Assembly: GCA_029934475.1 (NCBI GenBank)
Contig: JAOZMC010000002.1
Span: 27 to 64,026, forward strand
Direction of reading: 5' to 3'
Length of the DNA: 64,000 nucleotides
Source of the DNA: Arcobacteraceae bacterium
GTDB lineage: Bacteria > Campylobacterota > Campylobacteria > Campylobacterales > Arcobacteraceae
Shown: piece after piece, positions 25,914 to 52,869 of the stretch
Numbering within the stretch: the first letter of the stretch is position 1
How the letters are laid out: each line of letters begins with the position of its first letter
Notes under the pieces: model-generated
Database searches by the model: none
Told to the model about the DNA's origin: nothing
Seen by the model: the letters and a program-made list of their open reading frames with translations, nothing else
Position numbers and translations under genes: made by a program

Positions 25914-25963
25914 GTAAAGTTTAAATATAATTTGTTATAATAACAAAATTTTAAAGGAAAATT

Positions 25964-26704: not shown

Positions 26705-26707
26705 TAT

Positions 26708-27273: not shown

Positions 27274-27420
27274 ATAGTGACAATTTCTCAAATACTCACC
27301 TATATATAAATTTTTTAACGCTACAAATCACTATTTTTGATAATATTTTTCATATATTGGATAAAATATAGATAAATTTTGCTCAAATTGCCAGTTTTTG
27401 TGGTAATTTTATAAAAATTA

Positions 27421-27429
27421 TGATATAAT
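27421..27429 (+). promoter_or_regulatory. Extended -10 element (TGaTATAAT) upstream of the first giant lipoprotein gene
   Basis: TG at 27421-27422 and TATAAT at 27424-27429 sit in a 174-bp AT-rich spacer. RBS AAGGAG at 27436-27441 and ATG at 27448. Confidence 0.4.
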
Positions 27430-27447
27430 ATACAAAAGGAGTAAATA

Positions 27448-30400
27448 ATGAATAATATTTACAAGTTAAAATCAATATCAATAGCGACAATATTTTCGTT
27501 GTTTTTGGTAGGCTGTGAGCTAGGCAATATCAAAACTGCTATATCTATAGAGGGTAGAGTAGCCAAAGGTGCTATAGGTGGAGCTACTGTCACAGCATAT
27601 AAGGCTGGCACGACAGAAGTGATAGGAACTGCAACCACAGATACAAATGGCTACTACAAGCTAGACGGCGATATATTTTATGACGGTGTGATTTATATAG
27701 AATCTGCTGGTGGAACATATACAGATGAGCTCACAAATGCTGCCGGCAAAGATGCCAGTGTGTTTGACCTACAAGCTGTATCAAAAGTGGGTGCTGATGA
27801 TGGATATGTATTAAATATTACACCATTTTCAACTGTGGCATACAGAACCATGCAAAATGATGGAGCAGATATAACTTCTCCAACTACTGTAGGCAAATAC
27901 AACAAGGCAATATCGGATATATTTATAGGCAATGGCTTTGATATCACTAAGACCACACCAAACCTGCACGGCGATACGACTGACAATGACTTAGATAGCG
28001 AAGATGAAGAAAAGTATGGTTTCATGCTAAAAGTATTTACAAAGATGATAAACTCAAACGAAGCAAATGTAAATGGCAAGATAAACGATATAGTCGGTGC
28101 TATCGTGAGTCTTGACGATATGACTATCACAGAGGCTTTGGCAGATGAGATAATAACAACATTTATAGACCCTGTGGTAGCTACAGATATGACAGCTGAA
28201 GAGATATCTGATATGAATGACACTATCAATGATGCTAGAGATACAAAGCTACCAGATATCAGTGGCTCTTTGGCGAAAATATCTGCCGAGTTCAATACCA
28301 CCATAGCTACTTGGTCGCCAGTAGTAGCTCCTACAGGTGGGGTTATAACTAGCTGTGAAATATCACCAGACATCAACACGAGCTATGGCTTGACATTTGA
28401 CAAAACCAATTGTCAAATAAGCGGCAAACCAAACAAAGTAAATACAGAATCGTTTACTATAGTGCCAGCAAACCTCAAAGGCAAGGGAAACTTTTTTGTC
28501 ATATCTTTGGAAGTAAACAAGACAGCACAAGCACCATTTTCGCTAGATGGTAGCACAGTGTTTGAAAAAAACTCTACAGACTACACACAGACGACTGTAG
28601 GCGGTAGCTGTGTAGATGGAAGTTTGAGTTTTGAATCAAACGATACAAATGTAGCAGATATCACACCTGTAAGCGGTATCATAGACTTCAAAAATGTAGG
28701 CACAGTCCGTATCACGGCGACACTTAGCTGTGATGAATATAACGACATATCAGCAACAAAAGATATAACAGTAAATGATGTAGCTCCTGTCATCACTAGT
28801 CCAAACGATATCGTAGGCGAATACAACCAAACCATGACAAACTGGATACCAGACAGTAGCACAGGTGGCACGATATCTAGCTGTGAGATAGCTCCTGCTA
28901 ACTTTGAGGCAACTTATGGACTTGAGTTCAACGAAACAACATGTGAGATAAGTGGCAAACCAACAACTACAGTGCTAAATGCAGGAGGGATAAATATACA
29001 GATAAAAGCTATAAATCCTACAGGAGACAGCACTGTGTCTGTAAATCTAAAGATAGACAGAACAGACCAAAGCCCGGTGGTATCTATAGCACCAGATCAA
29101 GTATGTGTCGTAGACGATACATTTCCACAGACTGCCACAGGTGGAAGCAGTAGTGCTGTGGGATACATATATGGCACAGAGGACCCAAATATAGCCACAG
29201 TAGATGCTAGTGGTATGGTCACATGTGTAGCAAACGGCGATGTAAACATCACTGCTACGAAAGCTATGGATAGCTTTTACAACGCAAGCACAGGTAAATA
29301 CAAGGTATCTGTAGGATTGGTGCCACCAAATATCAACAACCCACAAACCACTACAGGCGTATATGGTGAAGCTGTCAGCTGGGAAGTCAACAACACAGGA
29401 GGTGTGTATGATAGCTGTATAATCACGCCAAACTTAGCACCAGATGACATAACTACAAAATACGGACTGGTATTTGATGTGGGTGACTGTAGTATAGATG
29501 GTTCGCCGACTGCTACAACTACTGGCGATGTGTCATATACTATCAAAGCGGTAACTGCAGACAGAGGAAACAGCACCAAAAATATAAACATAATCATTGA
29601 CAAAGCTTTGCAAAGTCCGTTTGGTTTTGATGATGGCATAACTTTAAATATAGGAGAAGTATCACCAAAAGCACTGGACCACATAGGCAACGGCACAGGG
29701 ACTATATCTTATGTAAGTACAGATGAAAATATGGCAGTAGTAGATGTAAATTCTGGAGCTATTACTTCTGTGTTGGCAGCAGGAACTGTAGAGATAAATG
29801 CTACTAAACAAGCTGACAACAACTATCAAATAGCTCATGCTTCATATATTTTAACTATACAAGCAGCCGATCCAAATATCACGAGTCCTGGCAATATCAT
29901 AACTGAATACAACACAACTATCACTACAAATTGGCTACCAAACAACACAAACGGCGGCCCTATCGAGGAGTGTGAGATATTGCCACTATTTACAGCAAAC
30001 AGCGGTATGGAGTTCAACACAACCACATGTGAGATAAGCGGAACTCCTCTATATACAAAAGAGAGTGGCACACTATATACTATAACTGCCAAAAACAAAA
30101 GCGGTGCAGGAGTTAGCACTACATCGGTTAAACTCACTGTAAACAAAGCAGACCAAGACCCACTTATCGTGCCTTTGGCTACTGTTGATGATACTATGGC
30201 AGATGTAAGCCATCAGCAAATTATTACAGGCGGTAGTGGCACAGGTAATATCACATTTAGTGGAGCAGTGGCAGGTAAATTTACTGTAGATACAAACAGC
30301 GGGTTGGTCACATATATAGATGAGATAGCAGGTGCTGTCATAACTGTATCAAAAGCAGAAGACGACAACTACAACGATATATCAACTACATATCTGTTGA

Positions 30401-31878
30401 ATATAGGCGACTTTAAGCCCGAGATAGGCACTTCTGCTACAGTGGCTATAGGCACATACAATGAGACAAACAACACTTTGTGGGAAGCAAACAACACAGC
30501 AGGCACAGCTACATTGGGTTACGAGACAGATCCTGCCTTGCCAAATGGTTTGTCTATAAACAACATAGGCGTGATAGGCGGAACTCCTACGAGTGCTATG
30601 AGTGCTACTGCCTACACAATCATGGCGAAAAATGCCTCTGGCAATGATACTATAGTAGTAAATATCACTATAAACAAAGCAACACAATCAAACTTTGTGT
30701 TTAACACAGGCAACAGGACAGGAGCAGTAGGCACACAATATACATATTCTGTGATAAACACAGATGTGCCTGCTGGAAATCTTATCTATACATCTTCTGC
30801 TTTGGGAGTAGATGTATCTGCCAATACAGGGTTGGTAGTCATAAGCCCAACGGCAACCTTTGGTAATGTAACCATATCTGCCACAAATAATGGCGACGGA
30901 AACTATAGTTCTACTACTGCTAGCTATATATTAGAAGTTACAGACCAAGCACCAAATATAGCAAATCCTACTACACCAAACTCAATCGTAGGTTCTTATG
31001 GCGACAACATAGGCTTTGACTTCAACAATACAGGTGGAACTATAAGCGGATGCGTGATATCAAGCGGAACTTTGCCAAATGGCTTGGCGGTAGCGGTCGT
31101 AGGCAACACCTGTCGCATACAAGGTATAGTGACCGAAGTCAAAGGCATTGGTGCATATACAATACAAGCTACAAACACAGCTGGTGATACTAGCACTAGA
31201 GGAGTGCAGATCACTATAAACAAAGCAGACCAAGCAGCATTTACAATATATGGCGACCAAACTATACCAGTGACAAATACGGCACATACTCAAACAGCAG
31301 ATGGTGGAAGCACAAACGAGGCGATACTGTATAGCTCTAGCAACACAACTGTAGCCCATGTAGATCAAAACGGCTTGATAGCACCGCATGTAGCTGGAAA
31401 CACTACTATAACTGCTATAAGACCAGGAAATGTCAGCTACAATGATATCAACGATAGCTATCTACTGACAGTCACTGATGCGGTGCTACCTACTGTTGAT
31501 TATGTAGCATCTACACCTACAAATGGTGCCATAGATGCAAACGGAACAGCAGATATCATAATAGTATGGAGCGAAGCAGTCAAGAAAATTGATGGATTTA
31601 ACATAGAGATAAAAAGCAAAGGCAACACAGCCCATGTGAAAGGTTATACTACAAACAACATAGTAGCAAACGGCGATACAAATGTTACTTTGTCGCTAGG
31701 AACGGGACATCTGAGCTATGGCGAGGAGTATTATATAGTCATAGATGCTGGAGCATTTGAAGATATGAGTGGCAACGATGCTGTTGCTCAAGGTGGAGAC
31801 GGCACATGGAATTTCACTGTGCCAACACAGACAGGCGATTGTGCCTATGATTGTGTAGACAATTGTGATAATTATTAA
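27448..31878 (+). CDS. Giant surface/secreted lipoprotein, paralog 1 (1476 aa): N-terminal domain, 6 x (He_PIG/cadherin-like Ig + Big_2-like Ig), SbsA-like Ig domain, Cys tail
   Basis: Lipobox FLVGC. Repeated modules are GG.I.SCEI.P....YGL.F...TC.ISG.P (paired Cys) alternating with .GGS...I.Y.S.D..VA.VD..G.V......G.V.ITATK. The C-terminal 130 aa are colinear with paralog 2. Confidence 0.85.
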   Translation: MNNIYKLKSISIATIFSLFLVGCELGNIKTAISIEGRVAKGAIGGATVTAYKAGTTEVIGTATTDTNGYYKLDGDIFYDGVIYIESAGGTYTDELTNAAGKDASVFDLQAVSKVGADDGYVLNITPFSTVAYRTMQNDGADITSPTTVGKYNKAISDIFIGNGFDITKTTPNLHGDTTDNDLDSEDEEKYGFMLKVFTKMINSNEANVNGKINDIVGAIVSLDDMTITEALADEIITTFIDPVVATDMTAEEISDMNDTINDARDTKLPDISGSLAKISAEFNTTIATWSPVVAPTGGVITSCEISPDINTSYGLTFDKTNCQISGKPNKVNTESFTIVPANLKGKGNFFVISLEVNKTAQAPFSLDGSTVFEKNSTDYTQTTVGGSCVDGSLSFESNDTNVADITPVSGIIDFKNVGTVRITATLSCDEYNDISATKDITVNDVAPVITSPNDIVGEYNQTMTNWIPDSSTGGTISSCEIAPANFEATYGLEFNETTCEISGKPTTTVLNAGGINIQIKAINPTGDSTVSVNLKIDRTDQSPVVSIAPDQVCVVDDTFPQTATGGSSSAVGYIYGTEDPNIATVDASGMVTCVANGDVNITATKAMDSFYNASTGKYKVSVGLVPPNINNPQTTTGVYGEAVSWEVNNTGGVYDSCIITPNLAPDDITTKYGLVFDVGDCSIDGSPTATTTGDVSYTIKAVTADRGNSTKNINIIIDKALQSPFGFDDGITLNIGEVSPKALDHIGNGTGTISYVSTDENMAVVDVNSGAITSVLAAGTVEINATKQADNNYQIAHASYILTIQAADPNITSPGNIITEYNTTITTNWLPNNTNGGPIEECEILPLFTANSGMEFNTTTCEISGTPLYTKESGTLYTITAKNKSGAGVSTTSVKLTVNKADQDPLIVPLATVDDTMADVSHQQIITGGSGTGNITFSGAVAGKFTVDTNSGLVTYIDEIAGAVITVSKAEDDNYNDISTTYLLNIGDFKPEIGTSATVAIGTYNETNNTLWEANNTAGTATLGYETDPALPNGLSINNIGVIGGTPTSAMSATAYTIMAKNASGNDTIVVNITINKATQSNFVFNTGNRTGAVGTQYTYSVINTDVPAGNLIYTSSALGVDVSANTGLVVISPTATFGNVTISATNNGDGNYSSTTASYILEVTDQAPNIANPTTPNSIVGSYGDNIGFDFNNTGGTISGCVISSGTLPNGLAVAVVGNTCRIQGIVTEVKGIGAYTIQATNTAGDTSTRGVQITINKADQAAFTIYGDQTIPVTNTAHTQTADGGSTNEAILYSSSNTTVAHVDQNGLIAPHVAGNTTITAIRPGNVSYNDINDSYLLTVTDAVLPTVDYVASTPTNGAIDANGTADIIIVWSEAVKKIDGFNIEIKSKGNTAHVKGYTTNNIVANGDTNVTLSLGTGHLSYGEEYYIVIDAGAFEDMSGNDAVAQGGDGTWNFTVPTQTGDCAYDCVDNCDNY
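28255..31485 (+). repeat. Array of about 12 alternating Ig-like coding modules (protein-level repeats) in paralog 1
   Basis: Six He_PIG-like and six Big_2-like modules of about 85-95 aa each, identified by recurring motifs in the translation. Confidence 0.7.
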
Positions 31879-31888
31879 GGAGAAAAAG

Positions 31889-34800
31889 ATGAAAAAATAT
31901 ATAAAAATATTATTGGTAATGATACCAATACTGTTGATATCATTTAGTGGATGTGGAGACAAAGGAACCGAAGGTGCCGTAACTACTGGATTGATCATAG
32001 AAGGCAGAGTGGCAAAAGGCTCTATAAGTGGAGCTACCATAGAAGTGTTTGATACAACTACTGGCGACTCTCTAGGGGTAGATGTGACCGATAGCCAAGG
32101 ATATTATAGCATAAAAACTTCGGCAAATACAAAAGGTGTAGTTAGACTTACGGCAAATGGTGGTTCGTTTATAGATGAACAAACAGGCAATCAACTAGAC
32201 GCTTCTGCTTTTGAGCTTGTAGCAGTCCAAGACACTACATATGAAGAAAGTATAGTAAATATAAATATTACTCCATTTACGACTGTATCGTATAAAAAAC
32301 TTATAGCAGACGGTAAAGATATAGGTTCAAAAGATGATGTGACCAAATACAACAAAGCTATAGCGAGCATATTTGTAGGAAACAAAAATATAGAGATCAC
32401 AAAGCTAGAGCCAAATATTGTAAACGATGCAAACGACAATCACCTAGACACAGATGACCAAAAAAATTATGGCACTATACTAGCAGCATTTTCAGGAATG
32501 ATACAAAACACTCCCGTGCTTACAACATCAGAGATAAACAATATTGTTGGGAAAATCAAAAATATAGAATATGCTACTATAGAGCAAGACTTAGCAAGCC
32601 ATATACAAAGCTATATTGCTGACATAAACACTACCAACGAACAGACAGATGAAAGTGTAAATGATATCAACAACTCAATAGAAAAAGCAGTATATTCAGT
32701 AGTGCCAAATATAATCGACTCAGCACCAAACCTAGACGATAATATAGATGAGAACAGCACAAAAATATCTTGGATACCTGTAACAAAAGAGGAAAGTGTC
32801 ACAAGCTGTAAATTGGGAGACGGTGTAAATCTAGCTGAATACAATCTTACATTTGATAGCGAAACATGTGCTATAACAGGAGAACCAAATGCTACGCACA
32901 CAGGAAAAGATATATATATAATTCCTTCAAATCCAGAAGGTGAAGGACTACCTTTTAGCTTAAATTTCAAGATAGATAGGATAGCACAAGCACCGATATC
33001 GTTTGTTCCTAGTGATAAAGAGGAGTTTAATGTGACAGATGGCAACTTTGATTTTGATATAACTGGTGGGACTTGTGATGATCTATCTGCTACAAGATTT
33101 GTATCTAGTGATACAGATGTAGCAAAAGTAAATATCAGCACAGGAATAATAGATATTAACACCACTGGAATATTTACACTCACAGCTACAAAAACTTGCA
33201 GCGAAGGCTATCTAGCAAAAGAGGTATCAAAAACAATAACCGTGCTACAAGTTCTCCCAAATATTGCTACAAGCACAGACATAAATGCTTCTATGAGTCA
33301 AGTGCTTGATTGGAATGTTACAAACACAGGCGGCTCTATAGATAGCTGTGCTATAGATACAGATATAAAAACACTCTACAATCTTGACTTTGACCAAACA
33401 ACTTGTGCTATTACTGGTGTGCCAAATACGACAAATATACCAGTTGGTATAGATGTGTCTATCACGGCTACAAACAGTATAGGCGACAACATTCAAGCTG
33501 TGCATATCCTTATAAATAGCAATCCAAACATAGATAATCCACAAAATACTATAGGTATATACAATACTCCAGTTGTATGGGATGTAAATAATACTGGCTC
33601 AAATGTAGGCATGATAACTAGTTGTGAAATAACACCAAATACGCTAAAAAACAACTACAATCTTGACTTCAATCAAACAAACTGCCAAATCACAGGTGAA
33701 GCAAACAAGACAACTACAGGCGACAACAGCTACACTATCACAGCAAAAAATATATCTGGCAATAGTGCTAAAAATATCAATATAGTTATAGACAGATCGC
33801 CACAAGATCCGATACTATTTGACCCAAATACCAAAAATGAATTTAACTTGACTGATATTGATTTTGACTTTGGTATCACAGGTGGAAACTGTAGCGGCAT
33901 AGAAACTATAACATATAACTCAAACGACACAGCTATAGCAGATGTCAATACGACTACCGGTGTAGTAAATATGCAAGGTGTAGGTGAGTTTAACCTCACT
34001 GCGACAAAAACTTGTAGCGAAAACTATTTGCCTGCAGTTGTGTCTAAGCTTATGACGGTTCACAATGTCGTGCCAGATATAACCAACGACAACAATATCA
34101 CAACTGAATATAATACTACTATAGCTACATGGAGACCATCAAATACAGGTGGAACTATCACCGGTTGTGCTTTGGACCAAGATATCAATAGCATGTATGG
34201 GTTGGATTTTAATGATACTACATGTGCTATATCAGGAGAGCCAAATGCCACCATACAAGCTGGCATCAACATAGGAGTTACAGCTTCAAATGAGATAGGA
34301 GATAGCAACACAATAGTATTACAACTAATTATAAACAAAGCTGTCCAAAATCCAATAGTAGATATGACAAACAACAATGCCAACTGCTACAAAGGAACAT
34401 CACCAATCATACACAAAGATGCTACAGGCGGGAGTAGTTCGTTTGATTATAACTATACTTCAAGCGACACAAATATAGCTACTGTAGATCCTGTCACAGG
34501 AGTAGTGAGTTGCATAGAGTTTGGTGAAGCAAATATCACGGCTACTAGAGCTGAAGATGACAATTGGCTTGAAAGTTCTCACTATTATACTATAGTGGTT
34601 TCAAACAATGCTCCAAATATAGACAATCCGCAAAATACTACAGGAATATATAATGAAGCAGTAGTATGGGATGTAAACAATAGTGGAGCAAATGTAGGAC
34701 CGATAGAAAGCTGTGAAATAACTCCAAACAATCTAAAAGCTACATACAATCTAGACTTCAATCAAACAACATGCCAAATCACTGGCATACCAAGTGCCTC

Positions 34801-37174
34801 TACCATAGGGGATAGTAGCTGGACCATTAAAGCTATAAACACTACAGGAAATAGCACAAAAAATATAAATATTGTTATAGATAAGGCTGAGCAAAATCCA
34901 TTTGGTTTTGACAACAATCTAACAATACACAAGTATGCAACTGGCTCAAATGCTCTTGATCATATAGGCAATGGCACTGGAGTTATTGAGTTTAAAAGCT
35001 TGGATGAGGATTTTGCGGTTGTAGATAGTGGTTCTGGCGATATAACACAAGCAAAGCAGATAGGAGACGTTCAAATACTTGCCACAAAAGGTAGTAGCGA
35101 CAACTTCAAAGAGACCAATGCCACATATACTTTGACTATCATAGATGCTGACCCAAATATCACAACACCAAACGATATATCTATAGAATACAATGAAACA
35201 TTTAGTTGGATGCCAGATAAAACAAATAGTGGCGAGATTGATAATTGTTCTATATTGCCTGTATTTGCAGCAAACAGCGGATTAGAGATAAACAACACGA
35301 CATGTGAGATAACAGGAGCTCCGCTTTTTGTAAAAGAAAGTGGGACAGAACATACTATAACCGCTACAAACAAAGCAGGAGTTGGTGTAGATACTACGAT
35401 AGTAGATATAGTAGTAGTAAAAGCGGAACAACAAGCACTTATAATACCACAGTCATTTATCAGTGATATTATGAGTGATATAGGACACCAGCAAGTCATC
35501 ACTGGAGGAAGTGGCGATGGAAATATCACATTTAGCAGTGCTGCATCGCCTACATTTATAGACCTAAACACAACTACAGGTGCTGTAGTATATAAAAAAC
35601 CATTTGACAACAACAAAACTATTATAGTATTGAAAAAAGGCAATGACTTTTATAAAAACAAGCAAGATAGCTACAAGTTTGTAGTAGGTGATTTTATACC
35701 GAACCTATCTGACTCTATAGCAGCAACAAGTGCAAATTTTGATGAGCTAAACAATACTTTATGGGAGCCTATAAATACAGGTGGCAATACTACATATGAC
35801 TATACCACAAACCCAGCTTTGCCTGCTGGATTGACTATACATCCCACTACAGGTATCATAGGTGGCACACCACAAAGCGCTCAAGATTCTGCACCATACG
35901 AGGTCAATGCCACAAATGCATCTGGCACATCATTGTTTGTAGTCAATATTACTATAAACAAAGTCCCTCAACCAAACTTTAGATTTAATGACGGCAACAG
36001 AACTAGTGAGCTAGGAACTAGCTTTGAATACAATGTTACAAATATAGACGCCCCTACAGGCACACTCACATATACCACAAGTGACCCAGCCAAAGCACTA
36101 GTAACAAACAGTGGAGTCGTGACTATAAACGATGCAGATACAAAAGGTAATGTAACTATAACAGCTAGAAATCAAGGCGATGGAAACTACAGTAGCACAG
36201 TAGCAACATATATCATAACCATAATAGACAAAAAGCCAAATATAGCAAACCCTATGACAAGTGAAGAACTAAATACCACTTATATGCAGACAATCCCAAC
36301 TTTCGAGTTTAATAACACAGGCGGTCCAGCCGTGAGCTGTATAACTGTGGGTGATGATTTGCCTACTGGATTGGAAGTAAATGTGACAGCTGGTGGCAAT
36401 TGTGTCATCACAGGCACACCAACCGAGGTAAAAACAGATCAAATATATACTATACGGGCTATAGGAGAGTTTGGCGATGAAAGCACCAAAGAGATACATC
36501 TATTTGTAGACAAAGCACATCAAACTGGATTTGATATAGTAGATGTGGATAAATATCTTGAGTCTGTAGTGTTGGATTTCAACAGAACTGGCTATGGTGG
36601 CAACACAACTTTGGATATACAATACACCTCTAGCAACGAAACTATAGCACTAGTAGGAGCGATCACTGGTGTGATAACACCAAAAACTACTGGCAATGTG
36701 ACAATAACAGCAACAAAACCAGGAAATGTAAGCTTCTATGATGCCAATGCAAGTTATAAGTTGATAGTGCAAGATACTTTAAGACCAGTAGTGGATTATG
36801 CCATATCTACACCTACAGACGACGAAGCAGATGCAAATGCAACTGCAAACTTGATCATAGTATGGAACGACAATATATCTATAAATGATGGCAAAACTAT
36901 ACGAATAAAAAGTGATGGCGATACCAACCTCACAATAACATACAGCACCACAGATTTGGTGATAGTTGGCGATAGAAATATTACTTTGGATTTGGGCAAC
37001 TTACACTTAAGTTATGGCGAGGAACACTATATTTATATAGAAGCTAACTCAGTAGCAGACAGTGGTGGAAATGTGAACGATGCAATAGACGATCAAACTA
37101 GCTGGAATTTTAGTGTATTGAGCGACAGTGGGCCTTGTAAACTAGATTGTGTGGACAATTGTGACAATTATTAA
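31889..37174 (+). CDS. Giant surface/secreted lipoprotein, paralog 2 (about 1761 aa): same architecture with 8 He_PIG-like + 7 Big_2-like modules
   Basis: RBS AAGGAG at 31877-31882 and ATG at 31889 (the track start 31865 lies inside the paralog 1 coding end). Lipobox SFSGC. The N-terminal domain (IEGRVAKGSISGAT...) and C-terminal 130 aa are homologous to paralog 1. Confidence 0.85.
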   Translation: MKKYIKILLVMIPILLISFSGCGDKGTEGAVTTGLIIEGRVAKGSISGATIEVFDTTTGDSLGVDVTDSQGYYSIKTSANTKGVVRLTANGGSFIDEQTGNQLDASAFELVAVQDTTYEESIVNINITPFTTVSYKKLIADGKDIGSKDDVTKYNKAIASIFVGNKNIEITKLEPNIVNDANDNHLDTDDQKNYGTILAAFSGMIQNTPVLTTSEINNIVGKIKNIEYATIEQDLASHIQSYIADINTTNEQTDESVNDINNSIEKAVYSVVPNIIDSAPNLDDNIDENSTKISWIPVTKEESVTSCKLGDGVNLAEYNLTFDSETCAITGEPNATHTGKDIYIIPSNPEGEGLPFSLNFKIDRIAQAPISFVPSDKEEFNVTDGNFDFDITGGTCDDLSATRFVSSDTDVAKVNISTGIIDINTTGIFTLTATKTCSEGYLAKEVSKTITVLQVLPNIATSTDINASMSQVLDWNVTNTGGSIDSCAIDTDIKTLYNLDFDQTTCAITGVPNTTNIPVGIDVSITATNSIGDNIQAVHILINSNPNIDNPQNTIGIYNTPVVWDVNNTGSNVGMITSCEITPNTLKNNYNLDFNQTNCQITGEANKTTTGDNSYTITAKNISGNSAKNINIVIDRSPQDPILFDPNTKNEFNLTDIDFDFGITGGNCSGIETITYNSNDTAIADVNTTTGVVNMQGVGEFNLTATKTCSENYLPAVVSKLMTVHNVVPDITNDNNITTEYNTTIATWRPSNTGGTITGCALDQDINSMYGLDFNDTTCAISGEPNATIQAGINIGVTASNEIGDSNTIVLQLIINKAVQNPIVDMTNNNANCYKGTSPIIHKDATGGSSSFDYNYTSSDTNIATVDPVTGVVSCIEFGEANITATRAEDDNWLESSHYYTIVVSNNAPNIDNPQNTTGIYNEAVVWDVNNSGANVGPIESCEITPNNLKATYNLDFNQTTCQITGIPSASTIGDSSWTIKAINTTGNSTKNINIVIDKAEQNPFGFDNNLTIHKYATGSNALDHIGNGTGVIEFKSLDEDFAVVDSGSGDITQAKQIGDVQILATKGSSDNFKETNATYTLTIIDADPNITTPNDISIEYNETFSWMPDKTNSGEIDNCSILPVFAANSGLEINNTTCEITGAPLFVKESGTEHTITATNKAGVGVDTTIVDIVVVKAEQQALIIPQSFISDIMSDIGHQQVITGGSGDGNITFSSAASPTFIDLNTTTGAVVYKKPFDNNKTIIVLKKGNDFYKNKQDSYKFVVGDFIPNLSDSIAATSANFDELNNTLWEPINTGGNTTYDYTTNPALPAGLTIHPTTGIIGGTPQSAQDSAPYEVNATNASGTSLFVVNITINKVPQPNFRFNDGNRTSELGTSFEYNVTNIDAPTGTLTYTTSDPAKALVTNSGVVTINDADTKGNVTITARNQGDGNYSSTVATYIITIIDKKPNIANPMTSEELNTTYMQTIPTFEFNNTGGPAVSCITVGDDLPTGLEVNVTAGGNCVITGTPTEVKTDQIYTIRAIGEFGDESTKEIHLFVDKAHQTGFDIVDVDKYLESVVLDFNRTGYGGNTTLDIQYTSSNETIALVGAITGVITPKTTGNVTITATKPGNVSFYDANASYKLIVQDTLRPVVDYAISTPTDDEADANATANLIIVWNDNISINDGKTIRIKSDGDTNLTITYSTTDLVIVGDRNITLDLGNLHLSYGEEHYIYIEANSVADSGGNVNDAIDDQTSWNFSVLSDSGPCKLDCVDNCDNY
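32702..36781 (+). repeat. Array of about 15 Ig-like coding modules in paralog 2, including an internal module duplication
   Basis: Modules at about 33526-33810 and about 34612-34900 (NIDNPQNT.GIYN..VVWDVNN.G.NVG.I.SCEITPN.LK..YNLDFNQT.CQITG...) resemble each other more than any other module pair. Confidence 0.7.
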
Positions 37175-37213
37175 CTAGTCATATAGATATTGGATAGCAT
37201 AAAATCGAACGAC

Positions 37214-37242
37214 ACAAACCCCAAAATATATTTGGGGTTTGT
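37214..37242 (+). terminator. Strong hairpin between giant gene 2 and the T2SS-like operon (terminator/attenuator or RNA-stability element)
   Basis: Perfect 12-bp stem ACAAACCCCAAA/TTTGGGGTTTGT with a 5-nt loop, 40 nt after the stop. No U-tract follows on the + strand. Confidence 0.5.
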
Positions 37243-37274
37243 AGATAATATAGAGTTCAACTCAAAAGGAAAAT

Positions 37275-38150
37275 ATGAAAAACTCTGTAGTGTTGCCATT
37301 TGTGCTTATGTTTGTGATGTCGTTTTCTATGCTTGTAGTAAATTTCGTTCAGAGCACTAGCCATATCATAGAGCAAAATCCATATCAAGATATAATCATA
37401 TCAAATACAGCGATAAACTCTATCAAGACAACCATAGTGAAGGCTCTAGCACCATACAGTAAAGTTCCAGACGAAGAGGTGTTGGCAATGTTGGCAAACA
37501 TAACCATAACTGATAAAAAAAATATCATAACTATGTCTGTCAGCATAGAAAAAGCCCCAACACTGATAGATATAAATCGTATGTTTGTATTTAACAAGAG
37601 ATTTAACCAATGGAAACTTAAAGACAAAATAAGAGTATGGCTAGTTGATGCTTTGAGTTTAAGGTTTGAATTAAATGAGCCATACTACTTGATAATGCTA
37701 CTAGAAAACACTTTAAATCATAATAGTGAGATAGTTTCAGAAAACTTTAGATATAATGAGGGGAAAATATATAGTTTGAAACATTTTTACAAAACTGTGG
37801 ATTATTATAAATTCTTTACAAGTGATGATATGATAGACAAAATACAATTTGAAGATATGTTTAGTTTCGACGATACAAACGATACTAGATATTGTGATGA
37901 TATGACCGATGTTGTATCAAAGCTTGTATCGGACGAGTATGATACAGAGGATTCTGGGATTGATTGTGAAAGCCCTACGGCAATTGTCAAGGAAAAATTA
38001 GATAGCTTGGGTATAATAAGTGGAAATGATAGCAGCTCACAAAAAGTCACAGGAACAGTGAGCTTCACATCTAACAACAAAGAAAAAATAGCAAACTTTG
38101 CTTATGATTTCAAAAAAAAGGAGATAACAAGTTTTGATATTCGGTTCTAG
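37275..38150 (+). CDS. Bitopic protein, first gene of the T2SS-like operon (GspK-like minor pseudopilin by position/topology only)
   Basis: 291 aa with RBS AAGGA. It has an N-terminal hydrophobic helix (VVLPFVLMFVMSFSMLVV) without the Glu5 motif and an acidic C-terminal region. No family motif recognised. Confidence 0.45.
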   Translation: MKNSVVLPFVLMFVMSFSMLVVNFVQSTSHIIEQNPYQDIIISNTAINSIKTTIVKALAPYSKVPDEEVLAMLANITITDKKNIITMSVSIEKAPTLIDINRMFVFNKRFNQWKLKDKIRVWLVDALSLRFELNEPYYLIMLLENTLNHNSEIVSENFRYNEGKIYSLKHFYKTVDYYKFFTSDDMIDKIQFEDMFSFDDTNDTRYCDDMTDVVSKLVSDEYDTEDSGIDCESPTAIVKEKLDSLGIISGNDSSSQKVTGTVSFTSNNKEKIANFAYDFKKKEITSFDIRF

Positions 38151-38970
38151 CAAAAGCAATCACTTTTTTTTGGATAAAAATACAAAAGAGTTTGCTACTC
38201 ACTCTGTCAATATTATACTGTCTCCTAGTTTTTATTGGACTAAGATACAAGAGATACCAGTGCTTACAGTATATGGTGCAAAAGAGTATTCTAATTCTAT
38301 ATTTGAAGGACTATTGCCAGAGGGCAACTGGACATATTTTGTTCAAAAAGAAGCAAAAAATCTATATAGATTTTTTGCTTTTGATCAAGATGAGCTTTTG
38401 GATTTTATCATATCAATAGGTGGCGACGAGCAGTATGTTCGCTCTTTGTATTTTGCACAAAATGAGTTTGATGATATATTGGACGATGAACAGTCAAAGT
38501 TTATATCTATAAGCGATAACAAATGTATGACAAAAATTCAAAACTCTGTCGTACTAGTGCCAAAAACTATAGTAACAGATAGTATAGATATGGATGATAT
38601 CTTAGATGATATAAAACTTTCACAACATGATATAAAAATAGATACCAACATCAGTATAAACACAGATATATTTATGGTGTTTATAGTTGTGGGATTGATA
38701 TTTTCATCTGGATTTGTTATAAATATAATCAACTATAACATGGAGATAGCAAAACTAGAAAACAATATTACAGAAAAAATCAAAATTCTAAAGCTACCAG
38801 AGACATCATTTGAACTAGAAGCTATAGCTACACAAAGTTCTGCAAAGATAAAAGAGCAAATAAACATAAGAAAAAATATCAAACAAATAAGCTCTATAAA
38901 AACAACACAATACGGCAAAATAAAGAAGCTAAAAATAACAAAAGAAAAGTTATCGGTATATGACAAATAA
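38134..38970 (+). CDS. Bitopic protein with about 180-aa cytoplasmic part, one central TM helix and C-terminal coiled segment (GspL/PilM-N-like by topology)
   Basis: 278 aa with a TTG start that overlaps the upstream gene by 17 nt. TM helix FMVFIVVGLIFSSGFVINIINY. Assignment is by architecture, not by motif. Confidence 0.45.
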   Translation: MIFGSSKSNHFFLDKNTKEFATHSVNIILSPSFYWTKIQEIPVLTVYGAKEYSNSIFEGLLPEGNWTYFVQKEAKNLYRFFAFDQDELLDFIISIGGDEQYVRSLYFAQNEFDDILDDEQSKFISISDNKCMTKIQNSVVLVPKTIVTDSIDMDDILDDIKLSQHDIKIDTNISINTDIFMVFIVVGLIFSSGFVINIINYNMEIAKLENNITEKIKILKLPETSFELEAIATQSSAKIKEQINIRKNIKQISSIKTTQYGKIKKLKITKEKLSVYDK

Positions 38971-39346
38971 AAATAAAAATTATCTACTAATAGCTTTTGT
39001 GGTTGGGTTTATTCTGCTTTTTATAACTACAAATAAATTTGAATCAAAAAAAGATGATGCTGTAACAAAATACACCACGATGCAAAAACTGCTACTAGAT
39101 GTAGAAAAAAACAAAGACAAATTTACTTATGAAAAAACCAAAGCCATAATAGATTCTGCTACATTTAAACAATATATAAAAACAGAAGAAAAAGAAAACT
39201 TGACAACGATAGTGTTTAATGCTCCATTAAAAATAGCAAATGCTTTCATTCGAAAGCTGGCAAATTCAGATTCATTGTTGGGCGAAATAGAGATACAACA
39301 AATAGAAAAAAGAGTCAAGATAATAATCAGGATAAAAAATGGATAA
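38960..39346 (+). CDS. Small bitopic protein (GspM-like by size/topology)
   Basis: 128 aa with N-terminal TM helix YLLIAFVVGFILLFITT followed by about 100 aa of periplasmic alpha/beta region. Overlaps both neighbours. Confidence 0.45.
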   Translation: MTNKNKNYLLIAFVVGFILLFITTNKFESKKDDAVTKYTTMQKLLLDVEKNKDKFTYEKTKAIIDSATFKQYIKTEEKENLTTIVFNAPLKIANAFIRKLANSDSLLGEIEIQQIEKRVKIIIRIKNG

Positions 39347-39923
39347 TATAAAAGCTATTTTATCTGTAATTATAGACAGACTAAGAGGACTAGAGAGCAT
39401 GCATATAGGTGGTGGTGTGAAGTTTCTCTTGTATGGCTTTTTGATACTGTTTTTTATAGTTTTTTTGTCACCCAAACAACAGCTCTATTTTTATCTCGAA
39501 GAAAAACTACAGCCATATAAAATCATAATATATCAAGAAAAGATTGAGCCGTTAAACACAGGTATATGGCTAAAAGATGGTATGGTCTCTTATGACAAGA
39601 TATTTATAGGATTGTTTAGCAATATAGTCATAAATACATATTTTTTCAAGACAAATATAGTCGTAGATGGTTTTCTGATAGACAAGGATTTTGAGATGTT
39701 TATACCATCAAAGATAGACAAGATAGCACTATCTCATAGTATTGTAAATCCGCTAAATGTTATCATAGAAGCGAAAGGAGAGTTTGGTGAGCTTGATGGG
39801 ACTTATGATTTTATCAGCGGTAAGCTAAAGCTGAAACTAAAGCCTAGCGATATCATGAAAACAAAAAAAGCATCACTAAAACTCATGACAAAAACCAAAG
39901 ATGGATACAAATATGAGAAATAG
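39339..39923 (+). CDS. Bitopic protein (GspN-like by size/topology)
   Basis: 194 aa with TM helix FLLYGFLILFFIVFL and a beta-rich periplasmic part ending in a GEFGELDGTYDFISGKLKLKLK-type motif. Confidence 0.4.
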   Translation: MDNIKAILSVIIDRLRGLESMHIGGGVKFLLYGFLILFFIVFLSPKQQLYFYLEEKLQPYKIIIYQEKIEPLNTGIWLKDGMVSYDKIFIGLFSNIVINTYFFKTNIVVDGFLIDKDFEMFIPSKIDKIALSHSIVNPLNVIIEAKGEFGELDGTYDFISGKLKLKLKPSDIMKTKKASLKLMTKTKDGYKYEK

Positions 39924-40818
39924 AGGTATGATAGCAAACGGACTGCTAATAATAGCTTTGATATATCTTTTCATGTCTGTAGTCAAGATATTTTTGCCTA
40001 TAACATCTGTAGAGCTACAAAAAGAAATTGACTATAATTTTGCATTTAACTACTCTTTACAAAATATTTACAAAGATAAAACAAAGAAAAAAGGCAGTCA
40101 AAATAGATCTAGCTTGGATTTTAAGCTTATAGGTATATATAGCGATGGTAAAAACAGTGTGGTGATAGTCAGCAAAGATAAAAGAACTGAAGTGGTAGCA
40201 GTAGGCGAAGAATATAAAGGCTATAAGCTAGTGGATACTACAAACATATTGGCTATATGGACTAGAGACAATACCCACTATGAACTTTCTATAGAAGATA
40301 CAAAAGATAGAAAGATAGAAGCAGCATACAAAATAGAAAATGATGATCCTTTTGGAACAAAAGAGATAAAATACACCGATATACAATACTACAAAAAAAA
40401 TCCACAAAAACTTTGGGATGAGATAAATATAAACAAAACAAAGGCGGGCTACACAGTAACCAAGATAGAGCCAGGCTCAAAGCTATCTACAATAGGTCTA
40501 AAAAAGGGCGATATTATAAAAGTTATAAATGGAACTGAACTGAAAGAAGACAGAGATGCTATAAAATTCTATAAAGATATAAAAAATTTAGAATTTATAA
40601 TCATTTCTGTCTTGCGTGGCGATAAATATATAGATATAGAGTATAATATAAAATCAGAACGACAACTACCAGAAGAAGAAGAGCCAAATGAGCAAATAAT
40701 GCCTGAAAAAGAAGATATTAATATAGAACAGATAGAAATTAAAGAAAAAAACGATACAATAGAAAAAAAGCAAGACAAAAGGTCTAAAAGCAACAATACA
40801 CTAGAGGATAACAGATGA
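39901..40818 (+). CDS. gspC: T2SS protein C-like (TM anchor + HR-like region + PDZ domain)
   Basis: 305 aa with N-terminal TM helix LLIIALIYLFMSVV and PDZ signature LSTIGLKKGDIIKVINGTEL. It lies immediately upstream of the secretin and is coupled to it (ATGA). The true start may be 39913 or 39928. Confidence 0.65.
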   Translation: MDTNMRNRGMIANGLLIIALIYLFMSVVKIFLPITSVELQKEIDYNFAFNYSLQNIYKDKTKKKGSQNRSSLDFKLIGIYSDGKNSVVIVSKDKRTEVVAVGEEYKGYKLVDTTNILAIWTRDNTHYELSIEDTKDRKIEAAYKIENDDPFGTKEIKYTDIQYYKKNPQKLWDEININKTKAGYTVTKIEPGSKLSTIGLKKGDIIKVINGTELKEDRDAIKFYKDIKNLEFIIISVLRGDKYIDIEYNIKSERQLPEEEEPNEQIMPEKEDINIEQIEIKEKNDTIEKKQDKRSKSNNTLEDNR

Positions 40819-43016
40819 GAATGATAGTAAAAGTTTTGATGGTAGTTATACTATTTGGCAACTTTGCTTTTGGCAAAGATACTGTAAACATAAACTTCAA
40901 AGGACTAAACATACGGGACTTTGTCAAAATGGTAGCAAAGATACGAAACGAAAATATACTTATAGGCAGTAAGCTAAGCGGAAGTATAAACTTCATATCG
41001 GTCAAGCCAATACCAAAGAAATCACTCATGACACTACTAAATCATGTGCTAGAAACCAAGGGCTTCACTCTAGTTCGCACAGGACATAGGTATCTCAAAG
41101 TAGTCAAAATAGCAGATGCAGGTAGATCGGGATTGCCAGTAAATACAACTAAAGATACTTTCCAGATTGTCACAGAGATCATAGAAGTAGATGGAATGAA
41201 TGTTGACTTGTTGGTAACCAAGCTAAGACATCTAGTGACCAAAAACTCAAAAATAACCACTTCAAAAGAGACAAATGCTTTGATAGTTACCGATTATCCA
41301 GACAAAATCAAAAGTATAAAAAAGATTATAAATCTACTATCAAGTAAAAGTCAGCTAAGAACACAAGTGATAAGACTAGAGCATATAAAGGCAGATGTAA
41401 TAGGACCAGACATACTCAAAATTACCAAAAACCTATTTGACCCAAAAATAGCAAAAAACAATCTTGATATCATCGTCAATACAAAGACAAATACTATAAC
41501 TTTGGTCGGCAGACAATCCCAGATAGATAGAGTAGCCGAGCTAATAAACGACGCAGACAACCAAGACGACAAATCATCTATAGTCATGGAAGTAATACCC
41601 ATAAACAATAGTAGTGCCGAAGAGATGATAAAAATACTAGAGAAATTTTATGCCACAAAAGGCAAAAATGTTCTATATCAACCAAGCTTTATGAACGACA
41701 AAGAACTCAACTCTGTCATAGTGAGAGCTAGAAAAAGAGATATAGATGATATCTTTGATGTCATCAAAAAACTAGATGTACCAAAACCACAAGTATATGT
41801 AAAAGCAAGGATTATAGAGATATCTGATGAAAAGGCCAGTGATATAGGAATCAAATATGGTCTAACTGGTGGCAAAGTGACCAGCAATGGTCTCATGACA
41901 ATGAGTGCAAATATGGGCGGACAGTCAATAGCAGTAGATAGCACACTGATGAGCTATATAGATATAGACACAAATCTAAAAGAGTTTTTTGCACTTGGTG
42001 CTACATTGTCGCTGCTACAAAGAGATGGAGCGGCTGAAGTGTTGAGCGAACCGTCACTGCTTTGTCTAAATAACAAAGAGTCAGAGATATATGTAGGAAA
42101 TACCCAATCAGTCGTGACAACAACAGCAAAAGGCACCACTAGCACATCCGATACTACAAACAGCTACAAAAGAGAAGATATAGGTCTAACACTCAAGATA
42201 AAACCACGACTCTCAAGTGACAACAAAGTTACTCTAGAAGTTTCTACTATCATTGAAGATGTGCTAGGATCAGATAGCAACGGACAGCCCATAACCACCA
42301 AAAGAACAGTCAAAACTACAGCCATAGTAAACGATGCAGAGTTAGTCATGTTAGGCGGTCTAAACAAAACAAAAGAGACTACAGATATATCAAAAGTGCC
42401 GTTGCTGGGTGATATACCTGTGCTTGGAGCATTGTTTAGAAACACAAATAAAACCATGTCAAAAACATCTCTGGCTATCATGTTAACTCCATATATCATA
42501 GATGAAAACAGAAACATAAGCAAACTCAGAAATGACTTAAATATGTTAGCATTAGCTCAAGATGACTATACCACTAAAGCTATGGCAATACTTGACAACG
42601 GTGATGTGCGAGAAGTTCGGCTAGAAAAGAGAAAGACCAAAAACCCAGACAATATCTCAAGTCCCACAGCCAAAAAAAGCTTTATAAAACGATCAAGCCC
42701 ACAAGCACAACAAAGATATTATAACAAGCCCAAAACTTATAAAAAGCCCAAAAAAACCAAAAAGTATTACAAGCAACAACCAAAAGGCAAATACAATATA
42801 TATGTTGGTAAGTATTATAGTTTTAGCGAGATCAAAGAGATAAGAAACGACAAAAAAGTAAATACAAACACAGATATGAAGCTAAACTATGATGGCAAAA
42901 ATATATTTGAAGTGAGTGTCGGTCCATACAGGACTATGACAAAGACTAAAAAAATCTTAAAATATATAAAAGAGAAATACAACGAAGATGCCTATATCAA
43001 AGACAAAATAAAATAG
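40815..43016 (+). CDS. gspD: T2SS secretin GspD with C-terminal Lys-rich linker and SPOR-like domain
   Basis: 733 aa with signal peptide and N0 domain (VNINFKGLNIRDFVKMVAKI...NILIG). The secretin core includes VPLLGDIPVLGALFR. A 120-aa C-terminal extension follows. Confidence 0.9.
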   Translation: MRMIVKVLMVVILFGNFAFGKDTVNINFKGLNIRDFVKMVAKIRNENILIGSKLSGSINFISVKPIPKKSLMTLLNHVLETKGFTLVRTGHRYLKVVKIADAGRSGLPVNTTKDTFQIVTEIIEVDGMNVDLLVTKLRHLVTKNSKITTSKETNALIVTDYPDKIKSIKKIINLLSSKSQLRTQVIRLEHIKADVIGPDILKITKNLFDPKIAKNNLDIIVNTKTNTITLVGRQSQIDRVAELINDADNQDDKSSIVMEVIPINNSSAEEMIKILEKFYATKGKNVLYQPSFMNDKELNSVIVRARKRDIDDIFDVIKKLDVPKPQVYVKARIIEISDEKASDIGIKYGLTGGKVTSNGLMTMSANMGGQSIAVDSTLMSYIDIDTNLKEFFALGATLSLLQRDGAAEVLSEPSLLCLNNKESEIYVGNTQSVVTTTAKGTTSTSDTTNSYKREDIGLTLKIKPRLSSDNKVTLEVSTIIEDVLGSDSNGQPITTKRTVKTTAIVNDAELVMLGGLNKTKETTDISKVPLLGDIPVLGALFRNTNKTMSKTSLAIMLTPYIIDENRNISKLRNDLNMLALAQDDYTTKAMAILDNGDVREVRLEKRKTKNPDNISSPTAKKSFIKRSSPQAQQRYYNKPKTYKKPKKTKKYYKQQPKGKYNIYVGKYYSFSEIKEIRNDKKVNTNTDMKLNYDGKNIFEVSVGPYRTMTKTKKILKYIKEKYNEDAYIKDKIK

Positions 43017-44240
43017 ATGTTATACAAATATACAGGAGTTGATAAGCAGTTCAAAAAAGTCTCAGCCACGATAGAAGCAAACAACTTGGATGAAGCCAAA
43101 AAAACTCTTAGACAAAGTGGTATAATGTTCAACTCCATAAAGGCTCAGCAACAAAACAGCTTAGAGTTCATGTCCGTTCTTTTTACAAAAGAATTGACAA
43201 AAAAAGAGCTATCTACTCTCAGCAGAGATCTGAGCTTCTATATCAAATCTGGTATAAATATATCAAGTGCTTTGAAGCTAGCAATATCACAATACAGTGA
43301 CTCAAAAAAGATCAAAAATTTTTTAGGTGAGGTTAGCAGATCTATAGATGAGGGCAAGGATTTTGCTACATCGCTTAGTATCCAAAAACAGATAAAACTT
43401 CCTCAATTTTATGTGCAAAGTATCAAAGCATCACAAAATGGAGGCATGCTTGATAATGTATTGATGGAACTATCTACATTTATATCAAATCAAGACAAGA
43501 TACAAAAAAAAATATCAAATGCCCTAGCATACCCTATGTTTATCGTCATAAGTGCATTGCTTATGGTAGTATTTATGCTAAGCTACGTAGTACCAAAAGT
43601 CATAGGTATATTTGAACAAAACAAACAAGAGCTACCGCTCATCACCAAATATGTGCTAGCTTCGAGCGATTTTGTGGGTGATTATTATGTGACAATACTG
43701 GTGCTAATAGTTTCTACTATATTTGCCGTGAAATATCTAAATAAAATTTCACCCTTGTTTCGCTACTCTTATGATGGTATCATCTTGAAGCTTCCACTTT
43801 TTGGTCCTATCATACTTATAAGTGAGTTGTCACGATTTAGCTATATGTGTTCGTTGTTGTTGCGGTCTGGCATGACATTGGTTGAGACAGTCAAGCTATC
43901 ATCTCAACTTTTGGACAATGTAGTCTTGGCCAAGATATTTGACGACAGTTCTACTTTTGTAGTCCAAGGCGGCAAACTCTCCTCCTCTTTGATGAGTAGA
44001 AATATTGATATACTGCCCAAAAGTTTCATCCAGTCTATCGCTCTAGGTGAAGAGACTAGTATGTTGCAAACTGTACTTTCTACACAGGCGGTGCGGTTTG
44101 ACGAAGACAACAGCGACAAGATAACTTTCATGCTATCACTTCTTGAACCTATCATGATGCTAGTTGTTGGCACTATCATCGCCATAATCGTCCTAGCCAT
44201 GATGTTGCCGATATTTTCTATAAATATAGGTGGTATGTAG
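43017..44240 (+). CDS. gspF: T2SS inner-membrane platform protein GspF
   Basis: 407 aa with a duplicated GspF domain, three TM segments and a typical C-terminus (LLEPIMMLVVG...MLPIF). Confidence 0.9.
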   Translation: MLYKYTGVDKQFKKVSATIEANNLDEAKKTLRQSGIMFNSIKAQQQNSLEFMSVLFTKELTKKELSTLSRDLSFYIKSGINISSALKLAISQYSDSKKIKNFLGEVSRSIDEGKDFATSLSIQKQIKLPQFYVQSIKASQNGGMLDNVLMELSTFISNQDKIQKKISNALAYPMFIVISALLMVVFMLSYVVPKVIGIFEQNKQELPLITKYVLASSDFVGDYYVTILVLIVSTIFAVKYLNKISPLFRYSYDGIILKLPLFGPIILISELSRFSYMCSLLLRSGMTLVETVKLSSQLLDNVVLAKIFDDSSTFVVQGGKLSSSLMSRNIDILPKSFIQSIALGEETSMLQTVLSTQAVRFDEDNSDKITFMLSLLEPIMMLVVGTIIAIIVLAMMLPIFSINIGGM

Positions 44241-44629
44241 TGAAAACATCGTTTTTGCTTATAGAGGCTATCATGGCTATAGTTATATTGTCGTTTTCTC
44301 TTGTGGGATTGTTGCAGTTAAATGGCACAACTATGGATATGTTGGCATTTGTATCTAGCAGAAGTTCGCTATATCAAGATGCCTCGCTAGTCAGTCAAAC
44401 TATCACCAAAGACTACAACAAAAAAACAAAATCTGCCTACGATATAGTATCAAAAAAATACAATATAGATAATCTCGATGTCAAACAAGCATTGTCAAAA
44501 GAGAAATACAAGATAAAAGTAGACAGTTATTCACAGCTAGTATTTGCTGATATATTTACGATAGATATCCATAGGATATCACTCTCAAACGAAAAAAATA
44601 AAATCCAAATATATAAATTAACCCCATGA
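44240..44629 (+). CDS. Pseudopilin (minor-type), prepilin-like N-terminus MKTS/FLLIEAIMAIVIL
   Basis: 129 aa with a GTG start overlapping the gspF stop. It has the F-x-L-I-E motif followed by a hydrophobic helix, with Ser rather than Gly at -1. Confidence 0.6.
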   Translation: MKTSFLLIEAIMAIVILSFSLVGLLQLNGTTMDMLAFVSSRSSLYQDASLVSQTITKDYNKKTKSAYDIVSKKYNIDNLDVKQALSKEKYKIKVDSYSQLVFADIFTIDIHRISLSNEKNKIQIYKLTP

Positions 44630-52819: not shown

Positions 52820-52869
52820 TTTTCAGTAAATAACTTTTGGATTAAGAAAGTTTGGATAAAATACCCAAA

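Follow-up and report, generated by a model that had tools for sequence, protein, structure and literature searches.

LigA and LigB of Leptospira, whose genes are tandem paralogs, are surface adhesins, lipoproteins of 12-13 tandem Big_2 domains of ~90 amino acids (aa); LigB is extended at its C-terminus by a region with putative Big_5 domains (PMC7821625). InvL of Acinetobacter baumannii combines a lipobox with immunoglobulin (Ig)-like, invasin-type domains and is a surface adhesin that depends on a type II secretion system (T2SS) (PMC9245377); it requires GspN and a sorting motif placed after the lipobox Cys (PMC12802150). SslE has a dedicated T2SS for its secretion (PMC5012682). Ig-repeat lipoprotein adhesins of the Lig type and lipoprotein adhesins exported by a T2SS are the closest known systems to a pair of giant genes, paralog 1 (p1) and paralog 2 (p2), which lie side by side in the genome of an Arcobacteraceae bacterium (assembly GCA_029934475.1, contig JAOZMC010000002.1). 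The whole stretch of DNA analysed, called the window hereafter, spans 64,000 nucleotides (nt), and all features of the pair and of the secretion genes that follow it are on the + strand.

The gene p1 (27448..31878) codes for a lipoprotein of 1476 aa and p2 (31889..37174) for one of 1761 aa. As read from their open reading frames (ORFs), Pfam matches and module hidden Markov models (HMMs), both have a four-part plan: an N-terminal domain of ~265 aa, an array of He_PIG-type (A) and Big_2-type (B) modules, which is (He_PIG-Big_2)x6 in p1, a Big_5-like end domain and a C-x3-C-x3-C tail (Cys3 tail). We consider it rather probable that the two proteins are old paralogs, 44% identical, which build giant lipid-anchored and glycosylated rods that are surface-displayed, adhesin-like and possibly exported by a T2SS. 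Their role is likely adhesion, spacing or surface shielding.

Like LigA and LigB, p1 and p2 are tandem paralogous Ig-repeat lipoproteins with Big_2 and Big_5-like domains. They depart from the Big_2-only array of the Lig proteins by alternating He_PIG with Big_2 modules, while the Lig proteins have no counterpart of the pair's PgcA-like N-terminal domain, Cys3 tail or PglB-type glycosylation sequons. The 5' halves of ligA and ligB are near-identical by gene conversion, whereas p1 and p2, at 44% identity, bear no sign of it. With InvL the pair shares the combination of a lipobox with Ig-like modules, T2SS dependence being for p1 and p2 a prediction. Compared to InvL, PulA and SslE, however, p1 and p2 are far larger, follow another domain grammar and have no GGG or ND(N/D) motif, and a GspN homolog is unconfirmed. 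A strict alternation of two module types, G5 and E, also builds the surface rod of SasG/Aap of staphylococci, which differ from p1 and p2 in being LPXTG proteins of Gram-positive bacteria, whose folds are unrelated and whose repeats are nearly identical. Known Campylobacter jejuni substrates of the oligosaccharyltransferase PglB carry one or few sites, in contrast to the 20-72 sites predicted in the p1/p2 family. The likeness to Campylobacter PglB substrates lies in the acceptor motif with an acidic residue at position -2 (PMC4894442) and in their being Sec-exported envelope proteins of Campylobacterota. The lipoprotein PgcA of Geobacter sulfurreducens passes through the outer membrane, and its lipid-attachment-site mutant is trapped in the periplasm (PMC11520253, PMC5732950). 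The first domain of PgcA ('lipodomain') is the best structural match to the N-terminal domain of p1, while its cargo, unlike that of p1 and p2, consists of three haem domains on PT linkers. p1 and p2 stand apart by alternating two folds, by a PgcA-like anchor domain, by their Cys3 tail and by an exceptional sequon density. Since long Ig-repeat surface proteins are common, the bare architecture of the pair is a modest find, and the glycosylation prediction is the part most worth following.

Domain organization of p1 and p2

Each protein starts with a signal peptide whose last residues are a lipobox ([LVIF][ASTVI][GAS]C); the lipobox was already read in the original prediction, which was made from the DNA letters and their translations. 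The lipobox is L-V-G-C in p1 (27448..27516, Cys23) and F-S-G-C in p2 (31889..31954, Cys22). Its Cys is invariant across five members of the family and nearly so across 48 distant relatives. The start of p2 was placed at the ATG at 31889, which has a GGAG 8 nt upstream, instead of the GTG at 31865 found in the ORF list. The resulting length of 1761 aa is that called for its counterpart in the closest genome, a metagenome-assembled genome (MAG) labelled Arcobacteraceae bacterium (GCA_029935755.1), called the related MAG hereafter. The first base of p2 lies 10 nt past the p1 stop and p2 carries its own GGAG, so that it is probably co-transcribed with p1. A consensus promoter scan was uninformative in the AT-rich DNA of the window.

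The N-terminal domain (27517..28311 in p1, 31955..32770 in p2) is homologous in the two proteins, and its alignment, at 37% identity, contains the shared motifs quoted for it beforehand. The AlphaFold model of the domain (pLDDT 90.1, pTM 0.86) features a transthyretin/CarboxypepD_reg-like beta-sandwich followed by a helical bundle. Pfam gives a weak CarboxypepD_reg/bMG3 match at its start and nothing further, and an NCBIfam scan of p1 and p2 yielded no match.

The module array extends over 28312..31473 in p1 and 32771..36769 in p2. HMMs iterated from one seed per module type reproduce exactly the composition first proposed, 6A+6B in p1 and 8A+7B in p2. The strict alternation that was also proposed holds for p1 (A1 B1 ... 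A6 B6), while p2 (A1 B1 A2 A3 B2 A4 B3 A5 B4 A6 B5 A7 B6 A8 B7) has one A-A junction, between A2 and A3. Assignment of the modules to the He_PIG and Big_2 folds is borne out by Pfam. He_PIG (PF05345) is matched at 57.1 bits in p1 (E 2.6e-15) and 76.1 bits in p2 (E 3e-21), above the gathering cut-off of 24 bits, and Big_2 (PF02368) at 38.5 bits (E 1.2e-9) and 54.4 bits (E 1.2e-14), respectively, above a cut-off of 22.8 bits. When modules are scanned singly, 13/14 A modules match He_PIG and 7/13 B modules match Big_2, the remaining B modules aligning with those. The AlphaFold model of the unit A4-B4, for which the alignment was made of 29 family units, shows two tandem beta-sandwiches (pLDDT 93.8, pTM 0.79), which in the PDB resemble tandems of cadherin EC and of Ig domains most. 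The Cys pair described as conserved in type A is present in five of the six A modules of p1 and seven of the eight of p2; it is absent from p1-A5 and p2-A7. Some B modules have a Cys pair of their own, bringing the modules with such a pair to 7 in p1 and 10 in p2.

The array is followed by the Big_5-like domain, at 31474..31875 in p1 and 36770..37171 in p2, the former aligned with the two Pfam Big_5 domains of the family members P0004 and P0017. It ends with the tail C-AYD-C-VDN-C-DNY in p1 (31840-31875) and C-KLD-C-VDN-C-DNY in p2 (37136-37171). A motif G-x-C-x3-C-[VI]-D-N-x0-1-C is found after the Big_5-like domain in all family members, and its three Cys leave an odd count once the intradomain pairs are made. 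In P0004 and P0017 the Cys3 motif is internal, with a Gly linker and then a PEBP domain after it.

Residues 198-1476 of p1 align colinearly with residues 470-1761 of p2 at 44% identity. Each p1 module has in its positional partner of p2 the best or a near-best match, and immediate neighbour modules are ~10-20% identical. The two arrays were thought to have diverged in the original prediction, but they are colinear throughout, with the exception of an old duplication of a BABA block in p2 minus one B module.

Predicted N-glycosylation

The acceptor motif of PglB needs an acidic residue at position -2 (PMC4894442), giving the sequon D/E-X-N-X-S/T. Its occurrence was compared with composition-preserving shuffles of the same proteins. 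p1 has 20 sequons (2.8 +/- 1.6 in shuffles, z ~11) and p2 has 41 (4.4 +/- 2.1, z ~17), mostly within their module arrays. The orthologs of p1 and p2 in the related MAG, P0002 and P0003, have 26 (2.2 in shuffles) and 44 (4.3), respectively, and a paralog with 14 AB units, (AB)14, encoded by the same MAG has 72 (5.7). The enrichment is about 7- to 13-fold across these five family proteins. An acidic residue occupies position -2 in 21/38 of the N-X-S/T motifs of p1, 44/67 of those of p2 and 72/113 of those of the (AB)14 paralog, that is 55-66%, while the acidic share is 0-13% at positions -5, -4, -3 and -1 of the sequon Asn and has a background of 10-13% at -2 of non-sequon Asn. Between orthologs 15/20 sequons of p1 and 37/41 of p2 are retained, compared to ~4 and ~19 expected from overall identity. 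Their density averages 4.2 per AB unit, and they are distributed over many alignment columns, mostly in loops and at the ends of strands in the model. No sequon excess is seen in He_PIG arrays of other taxa or in the remaining window ORFs tested, with one exception among the latter: the protein in the GspL position of the downstream secretion cluster (38134-38970) has three D/E-X-N-X-S/T sequons (z = 4.3).

p1 and p2 have D/E-X-N-X-S/T sequons on a Sec-exported protein, as PglB-type N-glycoproteins do. Such a signature of a Campylobacter-type PglB implies a periplasmic stage and heavy N-glycosylation of p1 and p2, in which both the PglB-type enzyme and the modification are predicted. It is tentatively suggested that the family ranks among the most densely N-glycosylated bacterial proteins observed so far, as lipid-anchored He_PIG/Big_2 rods bearing 20-72 PglB-type sequons that are conserved and number about four to each AB unit. 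To our knowledge, no N-glycoproteins have been described for Arcobacteraceae, and a literature search on pglB in Arcobacter was uninformative. If the prediction is true, the pair would form a surface fibre with heavy glycosylation and would offer PglB-based glycoengineering a natural scaffold with many acceptor sites.

The N-terminal lipoprotein domain

The best PDB match to the N-terminal domain found with Foldseek is the non-heme domain of Geobacter PgcA (9i0d; E 5e-4 over 159 columns), a resemblance that is best taken as a lead and not as family membership. A profile built from five family N-termini matches 1297 representative proteins, 221 of which at E <= 1e-10. These proteins are 126-2681 aa long, and the match nearly always falls within their residues 1-280. 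The cargo behind the domain in these relatives is varied and of extracellular type: Ig-like, Big_12, cadherin, fn3, LRR and PKD domains or an S8 protease/subtilase. A recognisable lipobox is found in 97/149 representatives with the domain; what comes after it is most often GGG or some other G/S/D-rich stretch. The domain is sometimes tandemly duplicated (L004 8810-11338; P0056-like proteins). Profiles of the N- and C-terminal domains gave signal-peptide or insignificant matches only to PDB sequences, while a protein homolog search seeded with the N-terminal alignment returned an empty result, probably due to a swamped candidate list. A metagenome scan with the close-family alignment found no relatives, and the diverse alignment was too variable for scanning.

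This widespread lipoprotein domain, which is not assigned in Pfam past its first beta-sandwich, may mark lipoproteins bound for the cell surface. Together with that of dense N-glycosylation, we make with some hesitation the proposal that the domain serves generally as a 'surface lipoprotein' module, common to more than 1000 protein clusters.

The downstream secretion genes and a proposed path to the cell surface

Genes for a secretion system (37275-46661) begin 100 nt past p2 on the same strand. The first four (37275..39923) code for small membrane proteins of 291, 278, 128 and 194 aa at the positions of GspK, GspL, GspM and GspN, an assignment by topology and gene order only, with no family match in Pfam or NCBIfam. 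The last of them (39339-39923) has only three homologs, none annotated, and is at most a candidate GspN. The T2SS core that follows (39901..46661) was recognized by Pfam, NCBIfam and prepilin-like N-termini. It comprises a GspC-like PDZ protein (39901-40818), whose best matches are GspC models, the GspD secretin (40815-43016), which has a GspD N0 domain and scores 356.8 bits for an equivalog cut-off of 351.35, GspF (43017-44240), two pseudopilin-like genes (44240-45150), one with the prepilin-type N-terminus FTIMELLI, and the GspE ATPase (45147-46661). A T2SS model is the best NCBIfam match of both GspF and GspE. A Cts-type DNA-uptake system was considered for this cluster and rejected, since its secretin scores above the GspD equivalog cut-off and it includes a GspC-like PDZ gene. 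The secretin also carries a ~170-aa Lys-rich extension past its secretin domain, which matches no Pfam family. The gene order is the same in the related MAG and in a JGI metagenome contig.

The genome of p1 and p2 has the T2SS on which surface lipoproteins of the InvL kind depend. It is because of the adjacency of the genes and of the precedents of PulA, SslE and InvL that a T2SS step is proposed here, and we regard export of p1 and p2 by this route as having about an even chance. The locus might then combine the substrate and the machine of a T2SS that exports lipoproteins in Campylobacterota. The C-GGG sequence at the lipid-modified Cys is present in many distant relatives with the N-terminal domain.

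In the proposed sequence of events, p1 and p2 would be exported by Sec and lipidated at Cys23 and Cys22, respectively, of the lipoboxes seen in their sequences. Folding would take place in the periplasm, where each Cys-pair module would gain one intradomain disulfide (7 and 10 pairs). A PglB-type oligosaccharyltransferase would N-glycosylate as many as 20 sequons of p1 and 41 of p2, and the proteins would be transferred across the outer membrane, probably by the T2SS encoded 100 nt downstream. The lipid and the PgcA-like domain would remain at the membrane, bearing the array of 12 or 15 beta-sandwich modules as a stalk coated with glycans, with the Big_5-like domain and its three-Cys tail as distal tip.

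Several observations weigh against this scheme. Location, lipidation, glycosylation and secretion of p1 and p2 are all predicted from their sequence. The likeness to PgcA is at fold level only (14% identity, TM 0.37-0.48), and a profile search of the N-terminal domain against PDB sequences gave no sequence-level hit. A PglB search (WWDYG) across the 64-kb window found none. The residues after the lipobox Cys, C-ELGNIKT in p1 and C-GDKGTEG in p2, do not form the G/S- or N/D-rich P2'-P8' sorting motif of A. baumannii (PMC12802150). A strong hairpin of 12 bp with no U-run (37214..37242; fold of 37190-37250 at -17.8 kcal/mol, z = -4.4) separates p2 from the T2SS genes; it may act as a terminator or attenuator or stabilise the mRNA. 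Being close relatives, the three syntenic loci do not count as independent evidence. Furthermore, gspC/D/E/F are within reach in 0/82 other loci with the N-terminal domain (80 metagenome loci of a distant subfamily plus the two loci L003 and L004; 32 of the 82 with at least 8 kb), and these have no conserved neighbour, so that the T2SS link is specific to the p1/p2 locus.

The absence of the sorting motif (PMC12802150), the hairpin and the lack of T2SS linkage of the other N-terminal-domain proteins would also suit periplasmic or inner-leaflet outer-membrane lipoproteins, forming for instance an envelope scaffold, with the adjoining T2SS being coincidental. It also counts in favour of such a location that PglB substrates include periplasmic proteins. 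Against it, the divergence of p1, by far the highest of the region (59% protein identity to the related MAG vs 80-96% for its neighbours), is as expected if the protein is exposed. An extended array of 12-15 modules would moreover far exceed the width of the periplasm, the Ig-/cadherin-like arrays and the cargo of the relatives are typical extracellular modules, and the fold relative PgcA is exported (PMC11520253). A periplasmic location of p1 and p2 thus appears unlikely, and the balance of the evidence is in favour of surface display.

The resemblance of the N-terminal domain to the PgcA domain that is removed on release (PMC5732950, PMC11520253) raises another possibility, namely that p1 and p2 are cleaved from their N-terminal lipid domain after export and shed as biofilm, S-layer-like or matrix fibres. 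The odd third Cys of the tail could form intermolecular bonds in such fibres. p1 and p2, however, have neither a PgcA-like cleavage motif nor a proline/threonine linker after the N-terminal domain, and we give shedding a low probability compared to the lipid-anchored rods favoured here. Two other types of surface protein were rejected. A T1SS (type I secretion system)/RTX adhesin does not fit proteins with a lipobox and without RTX repeats, and an intimin/invasin (type Ve) autotransporter does not fit the lack of an outer-membrane beta-barrel and an N-terminus made of a lipobox and a beta-sandwich/helical domain.

Duplication of modules in p2 and in the wider family

The most similar modules of p2 are A3 and A5, the pair singled out in the original prediction (~33526-33810 and ~34612-34900), with 67% aa identity and 74% nt identity over 270 nt (33523-33792 vs 34612-34881). 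Identity is also raised between B1 and B2 (52%) and between A2 and A4 (53%). The internal segmental duplication deduced earlier is supported by the alignment of B1-A2-A3 (32999..33826) with B2-A4-B3-A5 (33821..34918), which is colinear bar a single gap of ~91 aa from the end of an A module through most of a B module. The simplest history is that a four-module BABA block was duplicated in tandem and that about one B module was later lost in frame, a loss that would have created the A2-A3 junction near 33527-33580. The duplication is old, as the related-MAG ortholog and the third metagenomic copy share the module order.

The whole architecture was found in only a handful of proteins among 5.8 billion, and an exact-sequence look-up of p1 and of its relative P0004 retrieved no record. 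P0002 and P0003 are the syntenic orthologs of p1 and p2 in the related MAG (L001 10001-19724; 59% and 78% identity, respectively). P0004 and P0017 are (AB)3 proteins with two Big_5 domains, the Cys motif and a PEBP domain, P0018 is a complete (AB)2 protein of 768 aa, and the (AB)14 paralog of 2946 aa is encoded on another contig of the related MAG (L003 2114-10954). Array sizes are (AB)2, (AB)3, (AB)6, ABA(AB)6 and (AB)14, i.e. n = 2, 3, 6, 7.5 and 14. Since the other strong He_PIG matches are homotypic A-only arrays, the A/B alternation is a signature of this small family. Its maintenance from 2 to 14 units of two unlike folds provides a clean natural case of dissimilar neighbouring domains.

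The (AB)14 gene has a 1122-nt tandem duplication, 99.3% identical, whose period of 1092 nt corresponds to one ABAB block (nt 3496-4617 vs 4588-5707). It is either a recent expansion or an artefact of the MAG assembly. With this caveat, the repeat suggests that the family expands by tandem duplication of double AB units, recently so in the (AB)14 gene. Growth of the array in ABAB steps preserves the alternation. The view of a modular and expandable surface protein family is consequently sound for the family, with its surface-type lipoproteins of (AB)n, n = 2-14, while p1 and p2 themselves are stable in module order.

It was further proposed that recombination, by unequal crossing-over or gene conversion between modules or paralogs, makes p1 and p2 variable antigens with length or antigenic variants. 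The unit number does vary in the family, the 99.3%-identical repeat of the relative could recombine, and the tandem ligA/ligB genes of Leptospira undergo gene conversion (PMC7821625). In p1 and p2, however, no exact word longer than 18 nt is shared within or between any two modules or paralogs, and the best internal DNA repeat reaches 74% identity, so that there is no present substrate for homologous recombination. The paralogs are no closer within a genome (45.1 and 44.2% identity) than across genomes (44.7 and 43.9%) and no segment of the comparison stands out, so that there has been no gene conversion. Long near-identical repeats, silent cassettes and exchange, the hallmarks of a recombinational variation system, were not found in p1 and p2. 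Comparison with relatives revealed no variation of module number or order in the p1/p2 orthologs of the two other genomes or contigs found, and the duplication in p2 is older than the split between the genomes. A recombination-driven variable antigen is thus quite improbable, and p1 and p2 are better seen as old, stable paralogs.

Divergence of the locus

Nucleotide identity to the related MAG is 91-97% up to 25.8 kb of the window, falls to 55-66% in p1 and 69-75% in the first third of p2, and is mostly 80-86% in the remainder of p2 and the secretion genes. Synonymous divergence (dS) is ~0.2 in parAB and dnaE, 1.3 in p1 and 0.6-1.2 downstream, and its ratio to non-synonymous divergence (dN/dS) is 0.24 and 0.20 in p1 and p2, respectively, compared to 0.09 for dnaE. 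p1 is a sharp divergence hotspot. The whole locus (25800-41900) has a deeper history than the flanking core genes, because its nucleotide identity falls and dS rises relative to them. The pattern fits an exposed protein with alleles older than the flanking core genome, as would result from allele replacement together with relaxed or diversifying selection. Diversity at the locus would come from sequence divergence or allele replacement, strongest in p1, and not from module shuffling.

The third copy of the locus (JGI metagenome 3300033146; L085 1-3736) has a p2 ortholog with 85% nt identity and the same module order. Its coding sequence is interrupted by two frame-shifting deletions of ~50 nt each, in A5 and B4, and is either a pseudogene or the result of a sequencing or assembly error.

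Genomic context

The pair is set in an ordinary chromosome, with parAB and dnaE upstream, the RNase P RNA at 52868-53232 and housekeeping genes elsewhere. The segment 23402-26704 upstream of p1 codes for a 156-aa exported protein, a 684-aa polytopic membrane protein without family match and a 246-aa outer-membrane beta-barrel protein. The latter has an N-terminal stretch very rich in Lys, and the drop in identity to the related MAG starts at its gene. The G+C content of p1 is ~41%, above that of its surroundings.

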